Source of the DNA: a virus
Lineage: Duplodnaviria > Heunggongvirae > Uroviricota > Caudoviricetes
Virus record (IMG/VR): IMGVR_UViG_2541047842_000005
Strand: one strand, 5' to 3'
Length of the DNA: 54,238 nucleotides
Shown: piece after piece, positions 3,961-23,408 of the stretch
Layout: each line of letters begins with the position of its first letter
Position numbering within the stretch: position 1 is the stretch's first letter
The notes under the pieces: generated by a model
Databases searched by the model: none
What the model saw: the letters and a program-made list of their open reading frames with translations, nothing else
What the model was told of the DNA's origin: nothing
Made by a program: the position numbers and the translations under genes

Positions 3961-5079
3961 TTACAAAATGGAATATTCAGGGTAATAAACAAAACGCCCG
4001 ATTTCCCCATGATCCGGGCTGTAAATAATCACCGCTGCCATCCGCCGCGACCGCCATCCGCCATTTGTTGAGTAAGCGTCTTTACCCGCTAACGTGCCGT
4101 GATACTCAACAACGCCTAACGATGATTCAATCAGCCGTTGATGATGCCAGTGCCCGCAATGAGCGTAAACCGCCGCAGACTTGCCAAAGTCTTCTCGCCA
4201 GTCAGAGACGCAGGCAGACAACAAATTTTCAGGTTTTTTGATAGTATGACCGTGATGATATGCAAGGAATGTTTTGCCGTACTGTGTGTGGTGGACGATG
4301 GCAGGTGACACATCAACAGTAACGCGCGGTTCGTCTTCGTAAAAAGCCGCCAGCGCCGCACGTAGCCAGATCATTCCTGACTGGTCGTGATTACCTGATA
4401 ACACCTGAATTTCTACATCCTTATGATTCAACAACATCTTACCTACAGCACGCCGGACCGACCGGATCGCCACATAAACAAGTTTTGCGTAGCGTGAATC
4501 GCAATCTAAGACGTGATTACTTGATGGCGTCACTGGTAATAGCCCGTCCGTGTGAAGCACATCACCGCCGAGAAGCAATACAGCTTTTTCAGACGTTGGT
4601 GCAGCGCCTACAGCGTAGTCAAAGAAGTCATTTAACACGCGTTCAGCGATCCCGGTGTCGTAGCTCTCACCGCATTCAGCTTTATGAGCAAGCGCCCCGA
4701 TATGCAGATCGAATACCGGATAAAGGGCCAGGCTTTTTTGGAAATCAATCTCAGGCACTGGCACAGCCTCCGCGCGTGGTATCTCTTCCGTGAAAGCGTC
4801 ACAAGCCGATTGCATTAGCATTTCCATTTCATCGCGGTCACGGGCTGTTTTAATCCAGCGCATAATCACATTGCCATCCTTATCGACGAGCAATGACTCA
4901 CCATTGACGCCAAAACCCGGCGCGCGACGCGTGGATATTAAACCGCGTTTCGCCAGCCGTGCGCCCAGTCGTTCAACGTTGCGTTTTGCCATTCCATATT
5001 CTTCGGCTATTTGCTTGTAAGTTTTCCCATTGTTGTATTCAGCGATTAATTGCTCGTCGCTGATCTTTCTTTGCGACAT
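3961..5079 (-). CDS. HTH domain fused to calcineurin-like metallophosphoesterase
   Basis: 372 aa; N-terminal HTH (YKQIAEEYGMAKRNVERLGARLAKRGLI); phosphoesterase signature DLHIG...GGDVLHTDG...GNHD; sits immediately upstream of the helicase gene. Confidence 0.65.
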   Translation of the reverse strand: MSQRKISDEQLIAEYNNGKTYKQIAEEYGMAKRNVERLGARLAKRGLISTRRAPGFGVNGESLLVDKDGNVIMRWIKTARDRDEMEMLMQSACDAFTEEIPRAEAVPVPEIDFQKSLALYPVFDLHIGALAHKAECGESYDTGIAERVLNDFFDYAVGAAPTSEKAVLLLGGDVLHTDGLLPVTPSSNHVLDCDSRYAKLVYVAIRSVRRAVGKMLLNHKDVEIQVLSGNHDQSGMIWLRAALAAFYEDEPRVTVDVSPAIVHHTQYGKTFLAYHHGHTIKKPENLLSACVSDWREDFGKSAAVYAHCGHWHHQRLIESSLGVVEYHGTLAGKDAYSTNGGWRSRRMAAVIIYSPDHGEIGRFVYYPEYSIL

Positions 5080-7863: not shown

Positions 7864-8168
7864 CGCATTTTCTCCTATGGTTAGAGTGAACGCGCGGGCG
7901 GGCATCCCATTAGCATTAGATAGCAGTGACTGACCGCTCAACAGATCCCGCCGTTGCGTGATATTTGTTTTTCGCTTCGCAGCGACACCGGATTTTTAAA
8001 GAGCATAAGGTAAGTGCCTTTTTGTGCCTTCAGTTATCTTTTTCCTTGCGTCTTTGCAAGTATGGCCTTACCTTGTCTGCAAGTTTACAAAATGGAATTT
8101 TAAGATCAAGGCTTAAAATACACGTTTTGTGACTTGCATCAAACTTTTTGAGGTTATAGGGTAGCGAC
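7864..8168. promoter_or_regulatory. divergent immunity control region (candidate operators and promoters)
   Basis: Non-coding gap between the divergent cI-like and early-operon genes; repeated half-site TGCAAGT at about 8055-8061 and 8078-8084, and inverted at 8133-8139; also TTTACAAAATGGAAT and TGTGA-N6-TCAAA. Confidence 0.45.
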
Positions 8169-8816
8169 ATGAAAACAAAATGGTATGACTTAGCAAAGCA
8201 GCTCATGCGGGCGCAGGGCATGAGTCAGGATTCACTCGCAGATCTCATGGGGATAACTAAAGGCGGCCTGTCACACTGGCTGAACGGTCGCCGCGAGCCA
8301 AATCTTGAAGATATTGCGCGGATTATGCGGGCGCTTGGTCGTCGGCAGTTCACTGTTACACATGATGGTATGGTCATTGATGATTCTGTTTCTAATACAC
8401 TTCAGGCCGCACCGCCGCGTGATTTAGGTAGTTACCCGGTTATTGACTGGAAGGACACAGTAAACAATATGGATGACACAAGGCGATCAGCATTACCACA
8501 CGTTACGACTAGCGTTATTTGTTCAGATGATAGTTACTGGCTGGTTGCCAAAGGTGAATCAATGAACGCGCCGCAGGGGTTGAGCATCCCGGCGGGGACG
8601 ATGATACTTGTTGACCCGCACGCGCCAGCTATTGACGGCAAACTGGTTATAGCCCAGCTTGAGGAAGGGCAGATACCGACGTTTAAACAGTTGATTATTG
8701 ATGGAGGTCAAAGGCTTTTACGTTCGCTCAATCCGCTGTATCCGCCAATCCCTATGAATCCAGAATCAAAAATTATAGGCGTGGTGGTTGATGCGAAGAT
8801 CGTAAACCTGCCATAA
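8169..8816 (+). CDS. cI: cI-type phage repressor (HTH plus S24 LexA-like peptidase domain)
   Basis: 215 aa; N-terminal HTH (QDSLADLMGITKGGLSHWLNGRREP); C-terminal S24 fold with GESM serine and a downstream FKQL lysine. Confidence 0.85.
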   Translation: MKTKWYDLAKQLMRAQGMSQDSLADLMGITKGGLSHWLNGRREPNLEDIARIMRALGRRQFTVTHDGMVIDDSVSNTLQAAPPRDLGSYPVIDWKDTVNNMDDTRRSALPHVTTSVICSDDSYWLVAKGESMNAPQGLSIPAGTMILVDPHAPAIDGKLVIAQLEEGQIPTFKQLIIDGGQRLLRSLNPLYPPIPMNPESKIIGVVVDAKIVNLP

Positions 8817-8821
8817 ACATT

Positions 8822-8846
8822 AGCCGCCGGATGGCGGCTTTTCTTT
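8822..8846 (+). terminator. rho-independent terminator after the repressor gene
   Basis: GCCGCC-GGAT-GGCGGC stem-loop followed by TTTTCTTT. Confidence 0.5.
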
Positions 8847-8939
8847 GCCTGGAAAACGCCAAAACGTAAACAGAAAACGTTATTTATTGTTTAAATATCA
8901 ATAGCATATAAAATATTTTAAAAAAGTATACAAAATGGA

Positions 8940-8968
8940 TTGACTCGATGTTTTACGGGGCGTATATT
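8940..8968 (+). promoter_or_regulatory. sigma70-like promoter (pL analogue)
   Basis: TTGACT, 17-nt spacer, TATATT; a TATACAAAATGG motif lies directly upstream. Confidence 0.4.
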
Positions 8969-9222
8969 GCGAGTCAAAGGAAGGTCGCAGGTAACAAAAG
9001 CAACTTCCTGGCACTTTAAAAATCAGGCTTAACACCTTGTCAACCGTGGAGTAACTCCCCGATGGGGGACCGAAAGCGGCACTGATAACAAGGCGCATGG
9101 GGTGTTTAAAGCGTTACATCCCCCACGAAACCGCACGCAAGGCGACGAGTCAGCTTGCTTGGAGTGAGCAAGGTCACGCCGGGAACGGCGATGATTGCGG
9201 GATTAGTTGAAAGATGTTAAGC

Positions 9223-9260
9223 CGCTCATTAACAATCTGGTCAGCCGCTGGAAGTGCGGC
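9223..9260 (+). promoter_or_regulatory. nut-like site (boxA-like CGCTCATTAACAA plus boxB-like hairpin)
   Basis: CGCTCATTAACAA resembles the boxA consensus; 8 nt later GCCGC-TGGAAGT-GCGGC hairpin; located in the leader upstream of the N-like gene. Confidence 0.35.
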
Positions 9261-9316
9261 AATTAACGAAGATGATTTTTTATTAAGTATCATCAAGGAT
9301 ATACGGAGATCAGATT

Positions 9317-9607
9317 ATGAGCGTTACAATCATGTATGGCAAATGTGACAGTAAACTGAATGCCAGGGAACGCAGAAAAATAAAAAGAGAAAACGAAAGA
9401 AAATCATCACCTGCAATCAATAAAACAGACAATGTGGATAAAGCTATTCGATTTGCAAACGAGGAAAGATGCAAACCAAATAGCATTAAAGAACGTCGCA
9501 AAGGATCAGTAAAATGGTGTACGGAAAATGAAAGCGGCAGCTACTACCACGCAACGCAACCACGCCATTTAGGGGAAAAACCCCTGGATAAAGTCCGCTA
9601 CCATTAA
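9317..9607 (+). CDS. N-like transcription antiterminator (P22 gp24-like, arginine-rich motif)
   Basis: 96 aa, very basic; N-terminus MSVTIMYGKCDSKLNARERRKIKRENERK parallels the P22 N start (YGK..NAKTRRHERRRK) as I recall it. Confidence 0.55.
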   Translation: MSVTIMYGKCDSKLNARERRKIKRENERKSSPAINKTDNVDKAIRFANEERCKPNSIKERRKGSVKWCTENESGSYYHATQPRHLGEKPLDKVRYH

Positions 9608-9637
9608 TACAAAATGTAAACATCCGGAGGTGACATT

Positions 9638-9760
9638 ATGGTTATTCAGGCGCTTCAATTCAAACTGGCAGTAGCGGAAATGCTTCACGATGCCGAAATG
9701 TGGAGCGCCGCGAATAAAGCCTTATACATAGTGTTAACAGCACGGGAGATTAAATGGTGA
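9638..9760 (+). CDS. small hypothetical protein (40 aa)
   Basis: ATG with strong SD GGAGGTG; stop overlaps the erf start; not in the ORF track. Confidence 0.3.
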   Translation: MVIQALQFKLAVAEMLHDAEMWSAANKALYIVLTAREIKW

Positions 9761-10398
9761 AAACAGAGTTACATAAAAAGCTATGGACGATTCAGCAAAC
9801 GCTGAACGCGCCGAAAAATCAGCGTAATAATTTTGGTGGATATAATTACAGGTCGGCGGAGGATATTTTAGAGGCGGTTAAACCACTGCTTCAAAGTATT
9901 ACGCTGACTGTAAGCGATGAAATTGTCCTGATCGGCAATCGCTATTATGTGAAAGCTACGGCGACGCTAAGCGACGGTGAAGACGAAATAGCGGTAACGG
10001 CTTACGCCAGGGAAGAAGAAAGCAAGAAGGGAATGGACGCAAGCCAGCTAACAGGTGCGACATCAAGTTACGCGCGAAAATATGCTTTGAACGGTTTATT
10101 CTGCATTGATGATGCGCGAGATCCTGATACTGACGCATACGCTAAGCAGACAGGCCAGCAGCCTCGCCAGCAGAAAAACCCACCAAAACAACAACCACAG
10201 CAGCAGAAAGCGCCGCCAAATCCTGATGAAGTATTAGCACGTTTCTGTGATGCAGCAGCGAAAGCGCAGGACGCTAACAAGCTGCGTGAAATATTTGGCA
10301 AATGCTGGAAATTACTACCGGAAGGATCGGAACATCGAATCAAGGCAAAAGATGTTTATGACATCCGGGTAGCAGAGCTTAACGGGGAGATGGGTTAA
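9754..10398 (+). CDS. erf: Erf-family single-strand annealing protein
   Basis: 214 aa; LNAPKNQRNNFGGYNYRSAEDILEAVKPLL...IVLIGNRYYVKATAT...GATSSYARKYALNGLF matches the P22 Erf pattern. Confidence 0.85.
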   Translation: MVKTELHKKLWTIQQTLNAPKNQRNNFGGYNYRSAEDILEAVKPLLQSITLTVSDEIVLIGNRYYVKATATLSDGEDEIAVTAYAREEESKKGMDASQLTGATSSYARKYALNGLFCIDDARDPDTDAYAKQTGQQPRQQKNPPKQQPQQQKAPPNPDEVLARFCDAAAKAQDANKLREIFGKCWKLLPEGSEHRIKAKDVYDIRVAELNGEMG

Positions 10399-10802
10399 TG
10401 AGTTTAAATTCAATCACGCTGGGCGGGAATATCGGTAATGATATGGAGGTTCGCTACACACAAAACGGGAAAGCGATTGGTAGTTTTCCGTTAGCTGTAA
10501 CGAATGGCTACGGCGATAATAAGCGGACAATGTGGGTCACTTGCCTGGTATTTGGTGAGCGTGCGGAAAAATTAGCGCCACATATCCGCAAGGGTGGAAA
10601 AATAGTGGTAAGCGGTCGCCTGGATGTTCGGCAATATGACCGGAACGACGGCACGAAGGGAACGGCGGTAGAAGTGGCGGTTAACGAATTTGAATTCATG
10701 AACGTTAACCAACAAGGCCAGCAGCAGAAAGCGCCTCCGCAGCAGCAGAATAATAACGGGAATAATCCGCCGATGGACTTTGATGACGATATCCCGTTTT
10801 GA
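10398..10802 (+). CDS. ssb: single-stranded DNA-binding protein (SSB)
   Basis: 134 aa; OB-fold region, Gln/Pro-rich linker and acidic C-terminal tail MDFDDDIPF. Confidence 0.9.
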   Translation: MSLNSITLGGNIGNDMEVRYTQNGKAIGSFPLAVTNGYGDNKRTMWVTCLVFGERAEKLAPHIRKGGKIVVSGRLDVRQYDRNDGTKGTAVEVAVNEFEFMNVNQQGQQQKAPPQQQNNNGNNPPMDFDDDIPF

Positions 10803-11333: not shown

Positions 11334-11443
11334 GCTTTGCAAAAATTGCCGCATTGCTTGCGGCTTTATCTATCGCCGTGCTGTATCTCAGTGTATCTCT
11401 TTATATCACGGTAGCGATCATTAAACTCATTACTAACATGTGA
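11330..11443 (+). CDS. micro-ORF, hydrophobic peptide (37 aa)
   Basis: MSFAKIAALLAALSIAVLYLSVSLYITVAIIKLITNM; ATGA overlap with the upstream stop; single predicted TM helix. Confidence 0.3.
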   Translation: MSFAKIAALLAALSIAVLYLSVSLYITVAIIKLITNM

Positions 11444-16388: not shown

Positions 16389-16547
16389 AATTTACAAAAT
16401 GGCGCCATTGCGTGATGTGGATCACATAATGGCGCTATTCACCTTGTTCTGGTGTATCCATTTTGTATACTTCAAGCAAACGAAATGCTCTTTAAAAATC
16501 CGGCAGCGCTGAAATGCGTAGAAATCACCTGAAAAGGAGAGAGCATT

Positions 16548-16738: not shown

Positions 16739-17344
16739 ATGCAGAACCCTAAAAAACCCATAAGACGCCGTTGCAAATGCTGCGGCGTTTTTTTTGAGCC
16801 TAAATATCACAATCAAACGTGGTGCAGCGATGAATGTCTGGAAGAACTGAAGTTTGATCAGCTATGCCGCGATCGTGAAAAGGCTATGAAGGCTATGGAA
16901 CGAAAGAAACACCGTGATAGCCAGCGGGAAGAACGCAACCGGAAGCGGAAGCAGTTAAATCCGCGCAGCTACTGGATTAAACAGGCGCAAAACGTTTTTA
17001 ACGCTTATATACGCGAGCGTGACGCGCGATTGCCGTGCATATCATGCGGGACTTACTACGGTGAGCAATGCGGGTGGGATGCAGGCCATTACAGGACGGT
17101 AGCAGCCGCCGGACACCTTCGCTTCAACGAGGATAATTGTCACAAGCAATGCAGGCACTGCAACCAGACACTAGACGGCAACATCGGAGGGTATCGCCCG
17201 GCGCTGATTCGAAAAATTGGCCTCGCCAGGGTGGTAGCTCTGGAGAACAACAACGAAACTCACAAATGGACGATTGCAGAATGTAAGGAGCTAATAAACA
17301 TCTATCAGGCGAAATTGGACGCCTTAAGGAGAAAGGCAGCATGA
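16739..17344 (+). CDS. ninG: NinG/Rap recombination protein
   Basis: Track ORF 16649-17344; from MQNPKKPIRRRCKCCG (ATG 16739, SD GGGGTGG) it is colinear with lambda NinG (RSYWIKQAQ..FNAYIRERDARLPCISCGT...WDAGHYRT.AAA..LRFNE.N.HKQC..CNQ). Confidence 0.85.
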   Translation: MQNPKKPIRRRCKCCGVFFEPKYHNQTWCSDECLEELKFDQLCRDREKAMKAMERKKHRDSQREERNRKRKQLNPRSYWIKQAQNVFNAYIRERDARLPCISCGTYYGEQCGWDAGHYRTVAAAGHLRFNEDNCHKQCRHCNQTLDGNIGGYRPALIRKIGLARVVALENNNETHKWTIAECKELINIYQAKLDALRRKAA

Positions 17345-22701: not shown

Positions 22702-23408
22702 TTGTGCACAGAAAACCCCCAGCTAGGCTGGGGGTTCCGGAAAGCTTTCAGCTTTGAGCCAGTTATTAAAACCCCTTTTGATTTGTTAAAACACCTTGCG
22801 GTCTGGCAACTGCAAGTGTCAAACAAGAAATCAAAAGGGGGTCCCAATGGGGAACGAAAAGAGCTTAGCGCACACCCGATGGAACTGTAAATATCACATA
22901 GTTTTTGCGCCAAAATACCGAAGACAGGTGTTCTACAGAGAGAAGCGTAGAGCAATAGGCAGTATTTTGAGAAAGCTGTGTGAGTGGAAAAGCGTACGGA
23001 TTCTGGAAGCTGAATGCTGTGCAGATCATATCCATATGCTTGTGGAGATCCCGCCTAAAATGAGCGTATCCGGGTTTATGGGATATCTGAAAGGGAAAAG
23101 CAGTCTGATGCTTTACGAGCAGTTTGGTGATTTGAAATTCAAATACAGGAACAGGGAGTTCTGGTGCAGAGGGTACTACGTCGATACAGTGGGTAAGAAC
23201 ACGGCGAAGATACAGGATTACATAAAGCACCAGCTTGAAGAGGATAAAATGGGAGAGCAGTTATCGATTCCCTATCCGGGCAGCCCGTTTACGGGCCGTA
23301 AGTAACGAAGTTGGATGCAAATGTCAGATCGTGTGCGCCTGTTAGGGCGCGGCTGGTAAGAGAGCCTTATAGGCGCATTTGAAAAACCTCCGGCTATGCC
23401 GGAGGATA
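22702..23408 (+). mobile_element. IS200 (IS200/IS605 family) insertion sequence
   Basis: Contains a tnpA colinear with IS200 TnpA; perfect left-end hairpin CCCCCAGC-TAG-GCTGGGGG at 22716-22734, RBS-sequestering inverted repeat at about 22772-22822, right-end hairpin CCTCCGGC-TAT-GCCGGAGG at about 23388-23406; boundaries estimated from the expected ~707 bp length, +/-10 bp. Confidence 0.7.
22847..23305 (+). CDS. tnpA: IS200 transposase TnpA (HUH Y1 transposase)
   Basis: 152 aa from MGNEKSLAHTRWNCKYHIVFAPKYRRQVFY; HxH motif ADHIHMLVEIPP and C-terminal catalytic region RNREFWCRGYYVDTVG match IS200 TnpA; the track ORF 22796-23305 includes an upstream extension. Confidence 0.9.
   Translation: MGNEKSLAHTRWNCKYHIVFAPKYRRQVFYREKRRAIGSILRKLCEWKSVRILEAECCADHIHMLVEIPPKMSVSGFMGYLKGKSSLMLYEQFGDLKFKYRNREFWCRGYYVDTVGKNTAKIQDYIKHQLEEDKMGEQLSIPYPGSPFTGRK

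Follow-up and report, generated by a model that had tools for sequence, protein, structure and literature searches.

The stretch of DNA analyzed here (the window, 54,238 nt) carries on its plus strand a prophage repressor gene, an intrinsic terminator, an early promoter, a long leader and a gene for a 96-aa basic protein, followed by further early genes (Table 1). It is ~92% identical over the 2.3 kb compared to the phages mEp010, mEp515 and mEp021 and shares their gene order, a relatedness at the genome level to the phages that carry the Gp17/nut system. Judged by its sequence, the window is a coliphage of the mEpimmI group, which comprises mEp021-like temperate phages of E. coli. Early antitermination by Gp17 in mEp021 is reportedly the subject of Valencia-Toxqui et al. 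2023, Arch Virol 168:92; another paper that cites this work employs Gp17 solely as a His-tag control. The mEpimmI group was originally picked for its Nus dependence (PMC11893012). No tRNA or tmRNA was found by ARAGORN, and the sole real Rfam match of the whole window, STnc490, lies outside the leader.

Table 1. Features of the early region and of the associated nut sites (window coordinates).
Feature	Position	Strand	Basis
nutL, replication-gene arm: boxA TGCTCTTTAAAAA (8005-7993), boxB UCGCU-GCGA-AGCGA (7985-7972)	7972..8005	-	
Prophage repressor gene, HTH + S24 peptidase, Rep021/CI-like (= mEp021 gp15)	8169..8816	+	Pfam
Intrinsic terminator 3' of repressor gene (= mEp021 TERM_1)	8822..8847	+	stem and T-run, annotation
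TACAAAATGG motif, candidate operator half-site adjoining the -35 hexamer	8929..8938	+	enrichment, conservation
Early promoter of the gp17 operon, TTGACT-17-TATATT	8940..8968	+	hexamers, conservation
5' stem-loop of type-A leader, GGAAG...CUUCC	8979..9008	+	predicted; stem conserved, loop variable
Degenerate boxA-like copy GCACTTTAAAAATCAGG, upstream bracket of the domain	9011..9027	+	sequence match
Optional closed 198-nt structured RNA domain	9026..9223	+	folding, covariation
nutR1 boxA, CGCTCATTAACAA	9223..9235	+	motif search, relatives
nutR1 boxB hairpin, GCCGC-U-GGAA-GU-GCGGC	9244..9260	+	folding, covariation
A/U-rich hairpin GAUGAU...AUCAUC, between nutR1 and ribosome-binding site	9271..9294	+	predicted
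Shine-Dalgarno GGAG of the N-like gene	9305..9308	+	sequence; RBS annotated in mEp021
Gene for the Gp17-like N-type antiterminator (96 aa; ARM near residues 15-28)	9317..9607	+	homology, PHROG, hhalign
Kil-like ORF, 40 aa, next in operon	9638..9760	+	Pfam Lambda_Kil 2e-4
ERF gene	9754-10398	+	Pfam ERF 7e-42
SSB gene, after ERF	10398-10802	+	ORF list
Terminator-like hairpin in the gp17 operon (= mEp021 TERM_2)	11348..11372	+	pattern match, position
nutR2, 5' of NinG-like gene: boxA TGCTCTTTAAAAA (16486-16498), boxB GCGC-U-GAAA-U-GCGU (16506-16519)	16486..16519	+	

The repressor gene matches Pfam HTH_3 (5e-13) and Peptidase_S24 (4e-19), and its counterpart is labeled 'cI repressor' in mEp010, mEp515 and mEp021. 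The terminator that follows, AGCCGCC-GGAT-GGCGGCT at 8822-8839, has a 7-bp stem with six G-C pairs and then TTTTCTTT; it is invariant among relatives, and the mEp021 record annotates a terminator there. The promoter that the initial annotation had placed downstream of this terminator is present as described, with TTGACT at 8940-8945, a 17-nt spacer and TATATT at 8963-8968 (10/12 consensus matches). Both hexamers are invariant across nine diverse relatives and the spacer is variable, while distant relatives have TTGCAT or TTGACA-17-TATAGT at the promoter position. Transcription would start at ~8975. The motif adjoining the -35 hexamer occurs 23 times in the window against 5.8 matches expected, its copy at 8929-8938 is invariant in relatives, and the distant relatives L088 and L090 have it in the same place; further copies lie at 8086-8095 and at 16393/16458. 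The motif may act as an operator half-site, and the promoter is probably under repressor control. Gene order by analogy with lambda justifies calling this promoter 'pL-like', but the authors of the mEp021 work name the site behind it nutR1, not nutL.

A 96-aa basic protein with an arginine-rich motif near its N-terminus had been predicted downstream of this promoter, and the reading frame bears out that description (pI 9.9, 24 lysines plus arginines, with an arginine-rich stretch from N15 to R28). The protein is 93% identical to mEp021 Gp17 and falls in PHROG 271, 'anti-termination protein N-like' (E = 1e-11). Its arginine-rich motif (ARM), NARERRKIKRENER, carries all four of the arginines that stand out among 17 family members (R17, R20 and R24 invariant, R19 nearly so), as would a Gp17 orthologue. 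Position 21 of the motif is lysine in the window and arginine in 45 of 48 genomes (PMC11893012); beyond this K21, the window protein differs from that of mEp021 by minor substitutions only. An AlphaFold model has a mean pLDDT of 56 and is mostly disordered, with helices at residues 16-30 and 37-51. Since a largely disordered chain with an ARM helix is what is expected of N proteins, the model is consistent with an N-type function, and the protein fits the N class as a small, basic protein with predicted disorder and an N-terminal ARM. The protein gave no match in a PDB sequence search at E <= 10 or in NCBIfam, no Gp17 relatives were found among GTDB species representatives, and when a profile was run against 1.84 billion representative proteins, only four matches came back, with no P22 gp24 relatives at E <= 0.001.

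Immediately upstream of this gene, the leader contains boxA CGCTCATTAACAA followed by GCCGC-TGGAAGT-GCGGC, just as the initial annotation had read it, and the 64-nt stretch spanning the two elements of nutR1 is identical in mEp021. In boxA of the window an A replaces the consensus T (GCTCATT), and type-B relatives have TGCTCTTTAACAA at this position. Folded alone, boxB reaches -10.1 kcal/mol (z = -2.4). The minimum-energy fold does leave seven nucleotides unpaired, an atypical loop that had been taken as the mark of a variant nut site; we prefer to read the '7-nt loop' as a GGAA tetraloop of the GNRA type, flanked by U and GU with a non-canonical closure. Across relatives and the three nut sites described below, the stem covaries (GCCGC/GCGGC, GCUAC/GUAGC, GCAC/GUGC, CGC/GCG) around a constant CUG-N-R-A motif, and the loop is GNRA in every case. 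The three inner pairs, with a compensatory change in two of them, are paired in 36/36 cells of this comparison.

The initial annotation had made its interpretation depend on a matching nut site on the other arm. This partner exists, as nutL on the minus strand, and the system extends further than the two arms envisaged, with three sites instead of two, nutR2 being the extra one. An extended, 17-nt boxA core, GCTCWTTAAMAATCYGG, occurs three times in the window against 0.00 expected, each time on the strand of an early operon and each time followed by a GNRA-loop hairpin (GGAA, GCGA and GAAA) that starts 2-3 nt past a TCYGG motif. Each early operon is thus furnished with a boxA and a boxB hairpin with a GNRA-like loop. 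Both nutL and nutR2 are conserved in relatives, nutL with the loop variants GCAA and GUGA and nutR2 ahead of a gene with a NinG match. Distant relatives that are 35% and 65% identical and share the synteny have a promoter, a boxA GGCTCTTTAACAA and a boxB whose loop reads GAAA. PMC11893012 places the Gp17 sites of mEp021 5' of gp17 (nutR1), 5' of gp15 (nutL) and 3' of gp32 (nutR2); the window sites at 9223-9260 (plus), 8005-7972 (minus) and 16486-16519 (plus) match these by description. As in the published mEp021 work, nutL and nutR2 resemble each other most closely, and nutR1 varies the most.

We considered whether boxA and boxB might be chance matches and the product of the reading frame some other small basic protein that binds DNA or RNA. 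Single searches would allow this: the promoter scan by itself is not above chance (7 sites against 4.9 expected), a 13-nt boxA search with three mismatches allowed gave 31 matches against 21 expected, and Pfam and PDB gave no significant match for the protein. The recurrence of the 17-nt core on the right strand with an adjacent GNRA hairpin, the conservation and covariation of the sites in relatives and the experimental data on mEp021 reported in PMC11893012 all speak against coincidence, which we regard as barely credible.

Terminators on which such a system could act are less sharply defined. Terminator-like hairpins in the window number 23 against a shuffle mean of 15.9, which is not far above, and they are pattern matches only. 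One of them, at 11348-11364, is placed after a 74-aa ORF in the same way as mEp021 TERM_2 after gp22, and the 11348-11372 hairpin would be a likely target of antitermination; another pattern match lies at 16769-16787.

The resemblance of the protein to P22 N, proposed from its N-terminus, holds for the ARM-bearing half. This half aligns with P22 gp24 in hhalign (84% probability, E = 7.5e-6, residues 3-49 against gp24 2-69) and in BLASTP (E = 0.016, with 10/20 identities in the N-terminal 20 residues). The motifs MTVITYGK...NAKTRR and DRVTKAI of the window protein correspond to MSVTIMYGK...NARERR and DNVDKAI of gp24, that is, to the shared patterns M-T/S-V-I-x-Y-G-K, N-A-K/R-x-R-R and D-x-V-x-K-A-I. 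The resemblance does not extend further: at 16.1 bits (E = 0.017) the protein stays below the gathering threshold of 27.9 bits of PF25694 (N_peptide), the C-terminal halves do not align, and the window protein has ~20 residues fewer between the ARM and the second helix. Within the Gp17 family, 15 of 17 members match PF25694 at E <= 1 (best 4.8e-4), compared with 152 bits for P22 gp24 itself. Taken on sequence, the N-terminal half of Gp17 is remotely homologous to P22 gp24-type N.

The P22 likeness extends to the layout of the region. The P22 order c2-pL-nutL-24...kil-arf-erf parallels the order repressor, terminator, promoter, nut, N, kil, erf, ssb in the window. P22 nutL (CGCTCTTTAAC...GCGCUGACAAAGCGC-GAACAAATA) is similar in layout and sequence to nutL of the window (TGCTCTTTAAAAA...UCGCUGCGAAGCGA-AAAACAAATA), and in P22 nutR, too, the loop is closed in a non-Watson-Crick manner (C...C), which leaves seven nucleotides formally unpaired, comparable to nutR1 of the window. 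The two systems differ in that the window has three nut sites against two in P22, and GNRA tetraloops (GGAA, GAAA, GCGA) against a GACAA pentaloop.

Lambda offers the same class of mechanism. There, too, the N gene lies directly 3' of a nut site and near the repressor gene, a boxA CGCTCTTA precedes a short hairpin whose loop is purine-rich and GNRA-like (the boxA region of lambda nutL is CGCTCTTAA), and the mEpimmI group is like lambda in its Nus-factor dependence. The arrangement differs in that nutR follows cro in lambda, whereas nutL of the window stands 5' of the first gene of its arm. An alignment with lambdoid N proteins had been suggested as a check, and between lambda N itself and the window protein no sequence similarity was detectable (BLASTP E = 17, and no match of the window protein to PF11438 (N36) at E <= 1). 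The type-B boxA TGCTCTTTAACAA is the rrn boxA consensus, from which the window copy differs at two positions. Antitermination in the E. coli rrn leader is NusB/NusE-dependent, whereas the system of the window would be phage N-dependent, with a boxB 3' of boxA. The closest likeness is to mEp021, which belongs to the same group and has the same gene order and nut layout.

Taken together, we consider it about 90% probable that the 8940-9607 region is an early N-type processive antitermination module, seen here in sequence, with the experiments belonging to its relative mEp021. This reading follows from the presence of the sequence elements in the window, from their conservation and covariation and from the identity with mEp021; the proposal that the plus-strand early operon is under N-type antitermination is borne out by the 93% identity to Gp17 and the partner nut sites. 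According to PMC11893012, which cites Valencia-Toxqui 2023, mEp021 Gp17 is an experimentally shown N-like early antiterminator, and Gp17-dependent and Nus-dependent terminator read-through is reported for this phage. The N-type antitermination system of this region is therefore already known, as published for the mEp021 group.

By this scheme, transcription from the early promoter would produce the leader with nutR1 and then the Gp17-like mRNA, and go on through kil, erf and ssb into other early genes. Gp17 would use its N-terminal arginine-rich helix (about residues 15-28) to bind the GNRA-type boxB loop on the nascent RNA while host NusB/NusE occupy boxA, and together with NusA and NusG this complex would travel with RNA polymerase. 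The modified polymerase would resist downstream terminators such as the one at 11348-11364, and Gp17 would also serve nutL and nutR2. The exact RNA-protein contacts and the choice of overridden terminators are presumed by analogy.

The leader itself is the unusual part of the region. It had been described as ~340 nt long and rich in hairpins, and folding agrees: from ~8975 to the ATG at 9317 it measures ~342 nt and has a minimum free energy of -119.8 kcal/mol (z = -4.5), a stability that none of 100 shuffled versions reaches. A segment of ~243 nt (8982-9224) within it is optional and not tied to nut function; relatives without this module keep nutR1 and gp17. Inside the replaced segment, the 198-nt domain folds to -77.4 kcal/mol (z = -3.9) and is closed by a helix of 9 bp. 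It is missing from type-B relatives and from L044, L088 and L090, all of which keep the promoter, nutR1 and gp17. The A/U-rich hairpin at 9271-9294 is kept in both type-A and type-B leaders and is absent in L044, L045, L088 and L090. The single-sequence fold also has a long-range pairing of boxA and spacer with the gp17 start region; it is lost in the consensus fold and only partly conserved.

Alternatively, the conserved feature of the leader might be a 37-aa ORF at 9097-9210 (mEp021 gp16, annotated as hypothetical) encoding a small early protein. The frame is open in 14/14 variants, is given as a CDS in mEp021 and other GenBank records and has a weak AAGG 3 nt 5' of its ATG. However, chance alone would keep 114 nt open at <=7% divergence, predicted structure covers the start codon, PGAP called no gene in 31 E. 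coli genomes, and the substitutions comprise nine non-synonymous and five synonymous changes, among which the radical ones (Q to W, G to C, S to I) are those that restore an RNA helix. We consider this coding explanation improbable.

A large structured RNA just 3' of an early promoter also recalls phage HK022, whose putL sits just downstream of its early promoter, and the leader could in principle bring about antitermination by RNA alone, leaving the 96-aa protein otherwise employed. The domain shows no sequence similarity to phages outside the mEp group (50,697 records, 'distant' mode) and is dispensable, which argues against put-type membership; many relatives without it keep gp17 and all nut sites, and nutL and nutR2 have no such domain. 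Gp17, moreover, is the antiterminator in mEp021 according to PMC11893012. RNA-only antitermination is accordingly very improbable here.

N-type antitermination by Gp17 remains the preferred reading, and it may be supplemented by a second one, in which 8982-9224, with the domain at 9026-9223, is a separate cis-acting RNA module that tunes gp17 or nutR1. It might shield the long untranslated leader from Rho or provide a site for processing by RNase III or RNase E; with its boxA-like copy and a GGAA/GAAA hairpin at 9177-9190 it might also serve as a decoy or as another loading site. In support of such a module, both the domain and the whole leader fold better than expected (the z-scores given above), and the hairpin at 9154-9172 has three doubly compensated pairs in L045-47, with other substitutions preserving pairing and the consensus G.U pairs of the domain fitting only the plus strand, which is the transcribed one. 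The domain is also less variable than the promoter-proximal flank within type-A leaders. A boxA-like repeat stands on either side of it, at 9011-9027 and at 9224-9240; the first, found in type-A leaders only, agrees at 15/17 positions with boxA plus TCCGG as present in nutL and nutR2. The occurrence of the domain with two different types of gp17 and boxB suggests that it behaves as an exchangeable module.

Several observations weigh on the other side. The domain is dispensable, as its absence from the relatives named above indicates, and the compensatory changes come from one lineage and may represent a single event, in copies whose divergence of <=7% gives little covariation power. Thermodynamics does not separate the strands (z = -3.9 for plus and -4.3 for minus), and the L045 version reaches a z of only -1.5. 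Homologues beyond the phage group were not found in phage, E. coli, IMG/VR, GTDB or metagenome collections. The phage collection (50,697 records, 'distant' mode) gave just four mEp-like records, three pattern scans of IMG/VR turned up the contigs seen before together with L091 and L095, which belong to the group, and a chance 18-mer (L093), and a GTDB pattern scan gave six chance matches without wider similarity. Rfam had nothing at gathering score on the leader in the whole-window scan, and at E <= 10 across 8800-9700 its best matches (E 0.04-0.05) fell on the terminator and promoter or on the gp17 ORF, with none on the domain. Weighing these points, we think a tuning role for the segment plausible, though not the likelier outcome.

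Within its own phage context the domain is regular. It occurs in 31 of 5426 E. coli genomes, in single copy and apparently always in this prophage context, which was confirmed for the four copies inspected, and a metagenome scan added 11 near-identical copies in the same context. A MITE-like repeated mobile element was considered as well and rejected, since no genome has a second copy and no copy lies in a different setting.

Because the antitermination system has already been shown in a 92%-identical relative, the region is ordinary apart from the 198-nt folded RNA module. PMC11893012 makes no mention of a folded leader domain or of the extra boxA-like copy. We tentatively suggest, as a doubtful but specific proposal, that the domain is a previously unrecognized, exchangeable cis-regulatory module of a subset of mEpimmI phages that modulates Nus/N loading at nutR1 or acts on the N-like mRNA, through its stability, its processing or its translation.

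For the known part of the system, the analysis gives explicit coordinates of all three nut sites in this genome, and the covariation adds comparative support for boxB as a short stem with a GNRA tetraloop and a U-A or non-canonical closing pair. The remote homology with P22 gp24 connects the 'non-lambdoid' mEp021 group with the lineage of P22-type N. An optional, nearly invariant folded RNA module can now be recognized in most of the long leader. A regulatory effect of this module on N expression or on the use of nut sites would be a new, if modest, variation on a textbook system, and the cis-regulatory proposal, if true, would give N-type antitermination a level of control not present in lambda or P22.

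The region is 92% identical by megablast to Escherichia phages mEp010, mEp515 and mEp021, which belong to the mEpimmI group of Nus-dependent, "non-lambdoid" temperate coliphages (PMC11893012), and the 96-aa protein of the window, from the gene that we call gp17, shares 93% identity with mEp021 Gp17. PMC11893012, citing Valencia-Toxqui et al. 2023, attributes early antitermination in mEp021 to Gp17, an N-lambda-like protein with full conservation of arginines 17, 19, 20 and 24. Of the three nut sites that it lists as targets, nutR1 precedes gp17, nutL precedes the repressor gene gp15 and nutR2 follows gp32; nutL and nutR2 are reported as most alike and nutR1 as most variable.

The three nut positions in the window agree with that description, and its pattern is reproduced, with near-identical boxA sequences at nutL and nutR2 and a deviating nutR1. 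The window holds exactly three copies of the extended boxA core GCTCWTTAAMAATCYGG (0.00 expected), each followed after 2–3 nt by a short hairpin, and the nutL and nutR2 boxA copies are identical to each other. Across nutR1 boxA and boxB, mEp021 and 45 other copies share an unchanged 64-nt string with the window. The promoter, post-repressor terminator, leader, boxA, boxB and 96-aa ORF named in the initial annotation are all present in the sequence, as is a partner nut site on the minus strand. The N-type antitermination that it proposed is supported by the three nut sites, the N-like protein and the mEp021 system, the latter as reported in PMC11893012.

Features of the gp17 region and related elements in the window
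Feature	Position	Strand	Detail
Repressor gene	8169-8816	+	HTH + S24 peptidase; domain match
Strong intrinsic terminator after repressor gene	8822-8839	+	
Promoter TTGACT-17-TATATT	8940-8968	+	10/12 matches
5' hairpin, type-A leader	8979-9008	+	
Degenerate boxA-like copy GCACTTTAAAAATCAGG	9011-9027	+	15/17 identical to nutL/nutR2 core
Closed 198-nt domain	9026-9223	+	sealed by 9-bp helix GGCUUAACA/UGUUAAGCC
nutR1 boxA CGCTCATTAACAA	9223-9235	+	sequence search
nutR1 boxB GCCGC-TGGAAGT-GCGGC	9244-9260	+	hairpin GCCGC-U-GGAA-GU-GCGGC
96-aa ORF (gp17)	9317-9607	+	ATG at 9317; ORF list
nutL boxA TGCTCTTTAAAAA	8005-7993	-	found by search with initial boxA; hairpin UCGCU-GCGA-AGCGA
nutR2 boxA TGCTCTTTAAAAA	16486-16498	+	found by search with initial boxA; hairpin GCGC-U-GAAA-U-GCGU
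Terminator-like hairpin	11348-11364		corresponds to mEp021 TERM_2
Terminator-like hairpin	16769-16787		downstream
TACAAAATGG sites	8929-8938, 8086-8095, 16393-16402/16458-16467, 22668-22677/22694-22703, 39675-39684/39701-39710, 3962-3971, 31684-31693		

In 43 IMG/VR relatives, four E. coli prophages and two distant relatives from metagenomes, the boxB stem changes in sequence with pairing kept, with variants such as GCUAC/GUAGC (L045-47), GCAC/GUGC (L044, L090) and CGC/GCG (L088), and the loop is GNRA in every case (GGAA, GAAA, GCGA, GCAA or GUGA). When 12 sequences are aligned, the three inner pairs form in 36/36 cells, two of them with compensatory change; at the closing position, four sequences have U-A and eight a non-canonical U.U or U.C. 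A GGAA tetraloop with U on one side and GU on the other is thus the best reading of what was initially described as a variant 7-nt loop. Such a form has precedent, since P22 nutR (CCGC-C-GACAA-C-GCGG) also closes without a Watson-Crick pair, which leaves seven bases formally unpaired; the window's nutL resembles P22 nutL in sequence. In the single-sequence fold, 9234-9242 (boxA 3' end and spacer, AAUCUGGUC) pairs with 9308-9316 (GAUCAGAUU), a stretch that separates the Shine-Dalgarno sequence from the AUG of gp17. This pairing, only partly conserved in relatives and absent from the consensus fold, might point to a coupling of translation with nut occupancy.

The 96-aa protein is basic (pI 9.9, 24 K+R), carries the arginine-rich stretch NARERRKIKRENER at residues 15–28 and matches PHROG 271, "anti-termination protein N-like" (1e-11). 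Residue 21 of this motif is lysine, a position held by arginine in 45/48 group members (PMC11893012). The family is small: members are 62% to 96% identical to the window's protein, and among 1.84 billion representative proteins its profile matched only four. One of these is P0034, a 115-aa protein with the synteny repressor, N-like gene, 39-aa ORF, ERF, SSB. This distant relative (L088 4001-4348, 35% identity) has an insertion of about 19 residues at precisely the site of the extra length in P22 gp24, and in profile comparison it links the Gp17 family with P22 gp24. Three stretches of a 3778-aa protein, P0033, match positions 35-82 of the family profile (E = 1.4e-10), a match that may be compositional.

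The description "P22 gp24-like" is fair for the N-terminal half, because the first 20 residues align with gp24 by BLASTP (MSVTIMYGKCDSKLNARERR versus MTV-ITYGKSTFAGNAKTRR, E = 0.016) and the profile–profile match rises to 84% probability (E = 7.5e-6) when P0034 is added, spanning residues 3–49 with the arginine-rich motif and a D-x-V-x-K-A-I helix. It does not extend to formal membership of the gp24 family PF25694, where the protein falls below threshold (16.1 bits versus 27.9; gp24 itself scores 152 bits); the model matches 15/17 Gp17 family members at E <= 1 (best 4.8e-4). No similarity was found to lambda N (BLASTP), N36 (Pfam) or any PDB sequence. The C-terminal half (WY.ENESGNY.HA.QPR.LGE.PLD.VRYH) is family-specific. 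An AlphaFold model is of low confidence, with helices only at 16–30 and 37–51, and fits an intrinsically disordered N-type protein.

By itself, the promoter scan does not exceed chance (7 found versus 4.9 expected); both hexamers are unchanged in nine diverse relatives in which the spacer varies, and distant relatives have a comparable promoter in the same location. The plus-strand order of repressor, terminator, promoter, nutR1, gp17, Kil-like ORF, ERF and SSB mirrors the P22 order c2-pL-nutL-24...kil-arf-erf, an analogy that justifies the label "pL-like", even though this direction is called rightward by the mEp021 authors. The 40-aa ORF directly after gp17 (9638-9760, +) matches PHROG 34942 exactly and lambda Kil (PF06301) below threshold, at E = 2e-4. 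In the minus-strand unit, nutL is followed by genes for an HTH protein and for replication, and a NinG-like gene lies downstream of nutR2.

The motif TACAAAATGG is enriched in the window (23 matches with at most one mismatch versus 5.8 expected). It adjoins the -35 of the gp17 promoter, as in distant relatives L088 and L090, lies inside the divergent repressor region's 27-nt inverted repeat, and forms inverted pairs in the late region and ahead of both nutR2 and STnc490. Probably the repressor, or some other regulator, uses it as an operator. The STnc490 element (22714-22837, +) is a full-length Rfam match to this Hfq-binding sRNA (146 bits, E = 5e-30). Upstream of nutR2 (16440-16480), TTGTTC-N16-TATACT with CCATTTTG in its spacer shares its layout with TTGATC-N16-TAAACT upstream of nutL, which suggests that nutR2 has a weak, operator-bearing promoter of its own only about 7 nt before boxA; both are under the scan threshold.

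The gp17 leader, about 342 nt, folds at -119.8 kcal/mol (z = -4.5) and exists in two forms among aligned relatives. Type A (the window, mEp021 and most others) carries the segment 8982-9224. In type B (L003, L026, L033-37, L042, L043), and also in L044, L088 and L090, a mere 30–60 nt or so stand in its place, with boxA roughly 35–65 nt past the inferred start; the 198-nt module is dispensable. The domain is found alongside two distinct types of gp17 and boxB and thus behaves as an exchangeable module. GCACTTTAAAAATCAGG and the real nutR1 boxA bracket it as imperfect direct repeats. In L101 (metagenome contig OQVL01004386.1), just past the domain, the nutR1 boxB is broken after GCCGCTGGAAG and unrelated sequence follows, from a rearrangement of the prophage or a junction made in assembly.

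The domain folds at -77.4 kcal/mol (z = -3.9), and by z-score its opposite strand folds as well. It is nearly invariant in type-A relatives and less variable than the promoter-proximal flank. The hairpin at 9154-9172 changes from CUUGCU/AGCAAG to AUCACU/AGUGGU, with three doubly compensated pairs, in the lineage of L045-47, L091 and L095; the low divergence, the origin of this compensatory event in one lineage, the equally good fold of the opposite strand and the dispensability of the module all limit the evidence for RNA structure. Further substitutions keep pairing, and several consensus G.U pairs suit the transcribed strand only. A 37-aa ORF within the domain (mEp021 gp16), at which PGAP calls no gene, stays open with 5 synonymous and 9 non-synonymous changes, the radical ones accounted for by the RNA helix. 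Across phage records, E. coli genomes (present in 31/5426), IMG/VR, GTDB representatives and metagenomes, the domain is single-copy per genome and confined to this phage context, with no homologue outside the mEp021-like group; it has no Rfam match. Our best guess, at roughly one chance in four to one in three, is that the domain acts in cis on the stability, processing or Rho protection of the gp17 mRNA, or on Nus-factor loading.

The antitermination system of the window has been described before, in mEp021 and its group; only the folded module of the leader, along with the additional boxA-like repeat, may be undescribed.
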